Program-made: the position numbers and the translations under genes
In this document: positions 53,852-54,398 of the stretch, piece by piece
Layout of the letters: the number at the start of each line of letters is the position of its first letter
Position numbering within the stretch: position 1 is the first letter of the stretch
Assembly (NCBI RefSeq): GCF_003991155.1
Contig: NZ_CP031293.1
Source of the DNA: Escherichia coli
GTDB lineage: Bacteria; Pseudomonadota; Gammaproteobacteria; Enterobacterales; Enterobacteriaceae
Reading direction: 5' to 3' (one strand)
Length of the DNA: 64,000 nt
Notes under the pieces: model-generated
Seen by the model: only the letters and a program-made list of their open reading frames with translations
Told to the model about the DNA's origin: nothing
Database searches by the model: none

Positions 53852-54398
53852 GACTCAATCATTTTTTGAACAAATAGATAATTTTTGCGCAATGGCAGTG
53901 AATACAGGAAAAATCGTTTTGAGCGATTTTATTTATCTTTGATATCGGCTTTATTAATTCATTCAATCAATATATTAGCACTGATTACAATTATACCTTT
54001 TTATTTTTCTGTGTCATGATGCCTCCGTTATTAGCCTTTTATCGTCTTGTTTATATTTTTTGGGCCGGCATGATGCCGGCTTTTTTTATGCCTTCATTAA
54101 TGTGCGCGTGATCACACCAGCCGTTTGGCGCAACAATCATTGATACCCCCCATGTTTCCGCTCAACTCATAACATATTGATATACATTTATAATTTTCAT
54201 GAATATTTATATTTAGAATTCATAATTCTGAATTATATCAAATAGATTAGAAACATTTTGAAATCTTTTAAATACATTTGTTACATGTAATCTTTAAAAT
54301 AAAATGAACTTCATAGAATAGTATCCAAATGTGCTTTTTTTTGGATAACGGCACTTATTGATATATTCATGAAGATTATAATCACAAGGGAATACATA

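Follow-up and report, generated by a model that had tools for sequence, protein, structure and literature searches.

Two porin-repressing, Hfq-dependent small RNAs (sRNAs), MicF and MicC, are encoded beside the porin genes ompC and ompN, respectively, and hit other outer-membrane mRNAs at the Shine-Dalgarno (SD) sequence; the adjacency of micF and ompC was also seen here. In Escherichia coli K-12, the sRNA RseX came to light because, in multicopy, it suppresses the essentiality of RseP, and it represses both ompA and ompC in an Hfq-dependent manner (PMC8313858). RseX also binds and represses fimB and ihfB (PMC8313858), and its 3′ part represses fepA via the terminator loop, a control that needs Hfq and RNase E and that probably operates without direct pairing (PMC11979758). 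The RNA was undetectable in wild type K-12 under all laboratory conditions tried and appears on loss of H-NS, above all when StpA is lost as well; H-NS and Fis were located at −42 to −32 and −143 to −118 relative to rseX, respectively (PMC8313858). A silenced porin locus has been described in Salmonella, where ompS1 is kept quiescent by H-NS and StpA and is opened by LeuO and OmpR (PMC4264507).

We analysed positions 53852-54398 of a 64-kb stretch of E. coli DNA (the whole of which is called here the window). Over the 701 bp that span this interval, the DNA matches the chromosome of E. coli strain 2016C-3878 with 100% identity and 4879 more complete E. coli genomes with 92-99% identity. In the PGAP annotation the genes run vsr-dcm-yedJ-drpB, then a gap, then porin-hchA, as in the yedR-yedS region of K-12, yedR being now named drpB, a cell-division gene. 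The interval corresponds to the E. coli intergenic region between drpB (yedR) and yedS, and it is organised, with the genes at its edges, in this way:

53468-53770, minus strand: drpB (yedR) coding sequence, 100 aa (NCBIfam NF038392 DrpB, 151.6 bits; annotation; start as in PMC7648144)
53771-53997, no strand assigned: upstream regulatory DNA common to the divergent drpB and rseX (drpB promoter region and reported Fis and H-NS sites)
53998-54087, plus strand: rseX, a 90-nt small regulatory RNA, ortholog of K-12 b4603 (Rfam RF01401; collinearity with NC_000913.3)
54088-54398, plus strand: porin upstream region, 28.3% G+C (cross-species comparison)
54399-55472, plus strand: intact OmpC/OmpF-family porin of the yedS locus, 357 aa (open reading frame; PGAP 'porin' WP_000824361.1)

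The initial annotation of this DNA described a strongly AT-rich tract with no open reading frame (ORF), and both descriptions hold. The G+C content of 53852-54398 is 29.6%, compared to 49.3% across the whole 64-kb window, and only 0.035% of all 547-bp windows have a value as low or lower, the minimum (29.3%) starting at 53857. The longest ORFs lying wholly within the interval reach 31-44 aa; these small ORFs were considered as genes and rejected (no SD sequence, frame not conserved). Of the edges given earlier for a tract of ~550 bp, the right one is correct to the base, since the porin ATG starts at 54399, while the left one, 53852, marks only where the longest reading frame open to drpB ends and had to be moved. 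DrpB starts at 'ATG-22' (53770), and its promoter was mapped to the stretch from 'GTG-1' (53833) to this ATG (PMC7648144). Because this start, and not the TTG at 53851, is the experimental one, the non-coding tract measures ~628 bp (53771-54398) and includes the drpB promoter. Three drpB starts are in circulation, namely the TTG at 53851 (127 aa), the experimentally supported start at 53770 (100 aa), which is the one followed by the MG1655 annotation (NC_000913.3), and the PGAP start at 53749 (93 aa). RseX takes up only 90 of the ~550-630 bp, and the remainder is promoter and leader DNA of drpB, rseX and the porin.

For identification of the RNA, the whole window was scanned with Rfam at the gathering threshold, and the interval alone was scanned separately under permissive settings. 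RF01401, the RseX family, matched positions 53998-54087 on the plus strand with 96.7 bits and an E value of 5e-12 for the 64-kb window (gathering score, 50), and the match spans model positions 1-94 of 94, so that it is not truncated. An RseX gene had been expected in this tract by the initial annotation, which proposed this very search with the Rfam covariance model, and the RNA was found there. In the permissive scan RF01401 was the sole significant match in the interval; matches to STnc430 and RyhB, far under gathering and lying over the RseX terminator, were taken as chance. The placement between yedR and yedS described for K-12 also applies here, since the order is the same (drpB-rseX-yedS) and rseX lies on the yedS strand; rseX has likewise been placed beside drpB in the literature (PMC7648144). 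Alignment of the intergenic region with that of MG1655 mapped b4603 (NC_000913.3 2033649-2033739) exactly onto 53998-54087, and showed that the 5′ and 3′ ends of the RNA are common with those of the experimentally defined 91-nt K-12 transcript. All in all, the element at 53998-54087 (+) is almost certainly rseX, a stand-alone gene for a trans-acting, Hfq-dependent sRNA of ~90 nt.

RseX at this locus is already known and nothing is new in its identity: its discovery dates from 2002-2006, the K-12 annotation includes it and an Rfam family is devoted to it, so that its discovery value is small. The practical use lies in annotation, as a 90-nt rseX can be placed at 53998-54087 (+) where RefSeq/PGAP records carry no such feature. 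Among the matches listed, only MG1655 NC_000913.3 annotates rseX, and the feature is missing in PGAP-annotated RefSeq genomes, for example NZ_CP029747.1. In strain 2016C-3878 the locus tag of drpB (RS08420) is followed directly by that of the porin (RS08410), with none for rseX.

RseX begins with a U-rich 5′ end, which is followed by a small hairpin, a U-rich single-stranded stretch and the terminator. The elements of the gene are the following:

53986-53991, plus strand: putative rseX −10 element TACAAT, read from the sequence, its last base 7 nt before +1
54011-54035, plus strand: 5′ hairpin of RseX, nt 14-38 (Rfam consensus structure and minimum free energy (MFE) fold)
54026-54047, plus strand: invariant core of RseX, nt 29-50, CGUUAUUAGCCUUUUAUCGUCU (100% conserved in eight sequences)
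54062-54087, plus strand: intrinsic terminator, with a GGGCCGGCA/UGCCGGCUU stem, a UGA loop and a U-run (terminator scan and fold)

The 5′ hairpin has a stem of 5-6 bp, closed by G14-C38 and U15-G37, and a hypervariable loop at nt 24-28. The first six nucleotides of the core form the 3′ arm of this hairpin and the remainder (nt 35-50) is single-stranded. The terminator hairpin (54062-54082) consists of a 9-bp stem with six G-C pairs, followed by T7; it dominates both the MFE and the centroid folds of the RNA, and the MFE fold is the Rfam consensus structure. The folding z-score of the whole RNA was only −1.5, a modest value because most of the molecule is unstructured. The helices fit all aligned sequences, with 96.9% of cells paired. 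Among the 16 pairs, 12 never vary and one shows a compensatory change (G-C to A-U, in the C. amalonaticus terminator), the homologs being too similar for covariation to inform.

Regarding transcription, a sigma70 promoter and a primary transcript supported by 5′ RACE have been described for K-12 (PMC8313858, after Douchin 2006 and Chen 2002). The hexamers given here are putative and come from reading the sequence. The TAnnAT pattern at the −10 is kept in all Escherichia rows of the alignment, the −35 is weak (TTCAAT/TCAATC), and the rseX promoter was not listed by the consensus scan.

Compared to K-12 MG1655 RseX (b4603), the RNA of the window shows ~97% identity and has the same locus, relative strand, length class, hairpin, core and terminator. 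It differs by U for A at nt 9, by C for U at nt 26, in the hairpin loop, and by seven instead of eight terminal U's, hence 90 instead of 91 nt, while the UGA loop and the stem of the terminator are identical. This exact allele was found in 851 records. Single-copy RseX was present in 4876 of the 5426 complete E. coli genomes, and no match was obtained in the other ~10% (550/5426), in agreement with the classification of RseX as a 'variable' sRNA that a number of Shigella and E. coli lineages have lost (PMC3318445). One genome with no RseX match, NZ_AP027850.1, aligns with just 33 of the 701 bp of the query, a sign that the region may have been deleted or replaced in some E. coli lineages. Plasmid copies were considered and rejected, as the matches concerned came from chromosomes, or from records of chromosome size that had been deposited as plasmids, and none was a mobile copy.

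Beyond E. coli, a degenerate core-pattern scan of 100,044 species-representative genomes found the pattern in six of them (E. coli, E. albertii, E. whittamii, two other Escherichia and Citrobacter amalonaticus), and no Salmonella genome among these representatives carried it. Synteny is identical in C. amalonaticus (yedJ-drpB-RseX-porin), and the drpB-rseX-porin order is kept in other Escherichia species. In an alignment of eight sequences from six species, E. coli to C. amalonaticus, nt 12-49 of RseX were unchanging except for the hairpin loop (nt 24-28), and the DNA 5′ of +1 and 3′ of the terminator was far more divergent than RseX. Such an invariant core beside diverging flanks fits purifying selection on the RNA itself. 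The loop (54021-54025, nt 24-28) differs in almost every species, and the U26C change of this strain falls there.

Conservation bears directly on the possibility that what resembles RseX in this strain is a gene in decay that has lost its function, the AT-rich tract then being only regulatory DNA of the porin and drpB to which H-NS binds. Such decay would agree with the lack of detectable RseX expression in wild type K-12 (PMC8313858), with the weak −35 and with the loss of RseX from ~10% of complete E. coli genomes and from several Shigella and E. coli lineages (PMC3318445). However, the flanks have diverged between E. coli and C. amalonaticus whereas core and terminator have remained invariant, a contrast that points to purifying selection on the RNA; the allele of the window carries just two substitutions with its terminator intact, and the identical allele recurs in 851 records. 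We consider a relic very improbable. The conserved block could also be read as encoding a 31-aa protein, or RseX as a dual-function RNA, since an ATG-initiated ORF of 31 codons (54016-54111) overlaps RseX nt 19-90. This ORF, in contrast, is preceded by no SD sequence and overruns the terminator, so that the RNA would terminate before any stop codon. In K-12 the extra T shifts the frame of the ORF, and single-nucleotide indels do so in other species; because of these frameshifts, it is not a conserved coding sequence. We give the protein-coding reading next to no credence, and an sRNA gene stays by far the preferred interpretation of the block.

Pairing of RseX with its targets was predicted with a windowed, accessibility-weighted duplex search, in which dinucleotide shuffles of the sRNA body served as reference. 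This search replaced an unrestricted RNAduplex run of RseX against the targets, which had produced unrealistically long duplexes, no better than those of shuffles. The best predicted site in ompA pairs RseX nt 37-50 with positions −21 to −7 (−11.2 kcal/mol), and the best predicted site in ompC (−11.8 kcal/mol) lies in the SD region, where RseX nt 30-44 pair with positions −15 to +1, nt 30-44 being the stretch used by the K-12 allele and nt 25-43 that used by the window allele. Both sites draw on the invariant core. Shuffled sRNAs did as well as RseX in 7/80 cases (9%) for ompA and in 3/80 (4%) for ompC. Support over shuffles is modest for both mRNAs, and the exact pairing registers are to be taken as predicted ones. 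The two substitutions of the window allele fall outside the predicted ompA/ompC pairing core, and the top sites were unchanged or slightly stronger than with K-12 RseX. Secondary predicted pairings with ompA became stronger relative to K-12: the nt-9 change moved that of nt 1-19 with ompA −10 to +8 from −5.4 to −9.0 kcal/mol, and the nt-26 change moved a loop pairing of nt 24-36 with the ompA SD from −5.2 to −8.1 kcal/mol.

The same search addressed a local action of RseX, through pairing with the yedS mRNA of the adjacent porin at its translation-initiation region. An intact porin gene adjoins RseX on the same strand, and the known RseX targets are outer-membrane protein mRNAs (PMC8313858), both of which would speak for such a target. 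Nevertheless, the best pairing at −40 to +20 of the porin reached only −5.5 kcal/mol, weaker than that of 96% of shuffled sRNAs, and the best site across −120 to +100 (−7.8 kcal/mol) lies within the coding region. The porin initiation region was rejected as a target on the first of these values, and control of the neighbouring porin by RseX appears very unlikely.

We favour a trans-acting RseX, which most probably works in the following way. A weak sigma70 promoter (−10 TACAAT) would start rseX within AT-rich DNA that would normally be silenced by H-NS/StpA, and the GC-rich intrinsic terminator would end the RNA, leaving a U-tail that, together with the U-rich body, may form a binding platform for Hfq. 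When expressed, RseX would pair through its invariant core (nt ~29-50) with the SD regions of ompA and ompC, and this pairing would block translation of both mRNAs and lead to less porin and OmpA. Other parts of the molecule, the 5′ end and the terminator loop, would act on fimB, ihfB and fepA. Physiological activity of RseX in this strain is putative, the K-12 RNA being undetectable in wild type cells (PMC8313858).

On the drpB side, the 5′ end of RseX overlaps a promoter-like site on the opposite strand:

53990-54017, minus strand: sigma70-like site ATGACA-16-TATAAT, an 11/12 consensus match, over the RseX 5′ end

No other site on the two strands of the 64-kb window matches the sigma70 consensus at 11 or more of the 12 positions. 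The −35 of the site falls within RseX nt 15-20 and its −10 shares 2 bp with the rseX −10, the predicted divergent start being near 53983, ~15 bp from RseX +1. The site is kept in six of seven Escherichia sequences. It is not the mapped drpB promoter (between 53833 and 53770); a promoter-like TGGAAA-16-CATAAT at 53832-53805 (−), from the consensus scan, does fall in the mapped stretch (PMC7648144). The minus-strand site could make the rseX promoter bidirectional; bidirectional promoters are common and usually have an 18-bp spacing (PMC10268837). Alternatively, it could be a spurious promoter that H-NS suppresses in AT-rich DNA.

On the other side of RseX lies the porin, which is intact here, whereas in K-12 yedS is a frameshifted pseudogene with an internal stop. 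The protein belongs to the OmpC/OmpF/PhoE family, and as its NCBIfam scores are under each of the equivalog cut-offs (OmpF, OmpC and PhoE) we consider it a distinct paralog. Between the RseX terminator and the porin, a species-variable spacer of ~130 bp (~54100-54230) is followed by the last ~170 bp before the porin ATG (~54231-54398), promoter and leader, which are near-invariant in Escherichia and largely kept in C. amalonaticus. Two candidate elements were located in this conserved part:

54250-54289, plus strand: four 10-bp-phased OmpR-box-like repeats, GAAACATTTT GAAATCTTTT AAATACATTT GTTACATGTA, read from the sequence
54278-54305, plus strand: candidate porin promoter TTGTTA-16-TAAAAT (consensus scan, 9/12, not significant alone)

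The repeats sit directly 5′ of, and overlap, the candidate promoter, and they have the 11-mer ACATTTTGAAA in common with the C1 OmpR site of ompC (PMC2586830). This arrangement suggests that the porin may be under OmpR control. The porin transcript is predicted to start at ~54312. The region also contains a 19-nt inverted repeat (54188-54206/54363-54381), 95% complementary, whose second arm lies just 5′ of the porin SD. We rejected it as an RNA helix of the porin leader, given that the first arm varies between species without compensation; it probably reflects recurring TTCATGAA palindromes, which are possible protein sites.

Where the porin is intact, the AT-rich tract might work as an H-NS/StpA-silenced 'porin-swap' module, in which OmpR-type boxes would turn to the alternative porin, RseX would bring OmpC and OmpA down, and the rseX promoter would be bidirectional. 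We put this forward as a speculative and rather unlikely scheme. If it were true, lifting of the silencing would switch the alternative porin on while the co-oriented RseX lowers the resident OmpC and OmpA, and the minus-strand promoter (54017-53990) would be coupled to transcription toward drpB or compete with it. In this strain, unlike in K-12, RseX and a YedS-type porin are both intact, and the strain should be a better background in which to look for natural RseX expression. The intergenic region also serves as a marker of host source for E. coli (PMC11267920), and the division of the tract into RNA, promoter and spacer parts helps to read the marker SNPs.

Two further sets of RNA genes were seen in the window. 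DsrA lies 8 kb from RseX, at 45564-45650 (−), with a full-length Rfam match of 102.5 bits; DsrA represses hns, and H-NS silences RseX. A cluster of three tRNAs was matched at 14306-14605 (−), with Rfam scores of 54-69 bits.

Taken together with the described systems, RseX resembles MicF and MicC in being a short Hfq-dependent sRNA with a terminator that is encoded 5′ of one porin gene. The resemblance does not extend to sequence, as no Rfam match to MicF or MicC was obtained in the permissive scan of the interval. RseX also differs from both in that it is co-oriented with its porin neighbour, MicF and MicC being divergent, and in that it is silenced by H-NS and has no known activator (PMC8313858). 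The locus also resembles Salmonella ompS1, a likeness that does not imply orthology of the porins: in both cases an AT-rich silenced region lies 5′ of a minor porin of the OmpC family, here with OmpR-box-like repeats, and the strongest derepression of RseX in the hns stpA double mutant (PMC8313858) recalls the silencing of ompS1 by H-NS and StpA.
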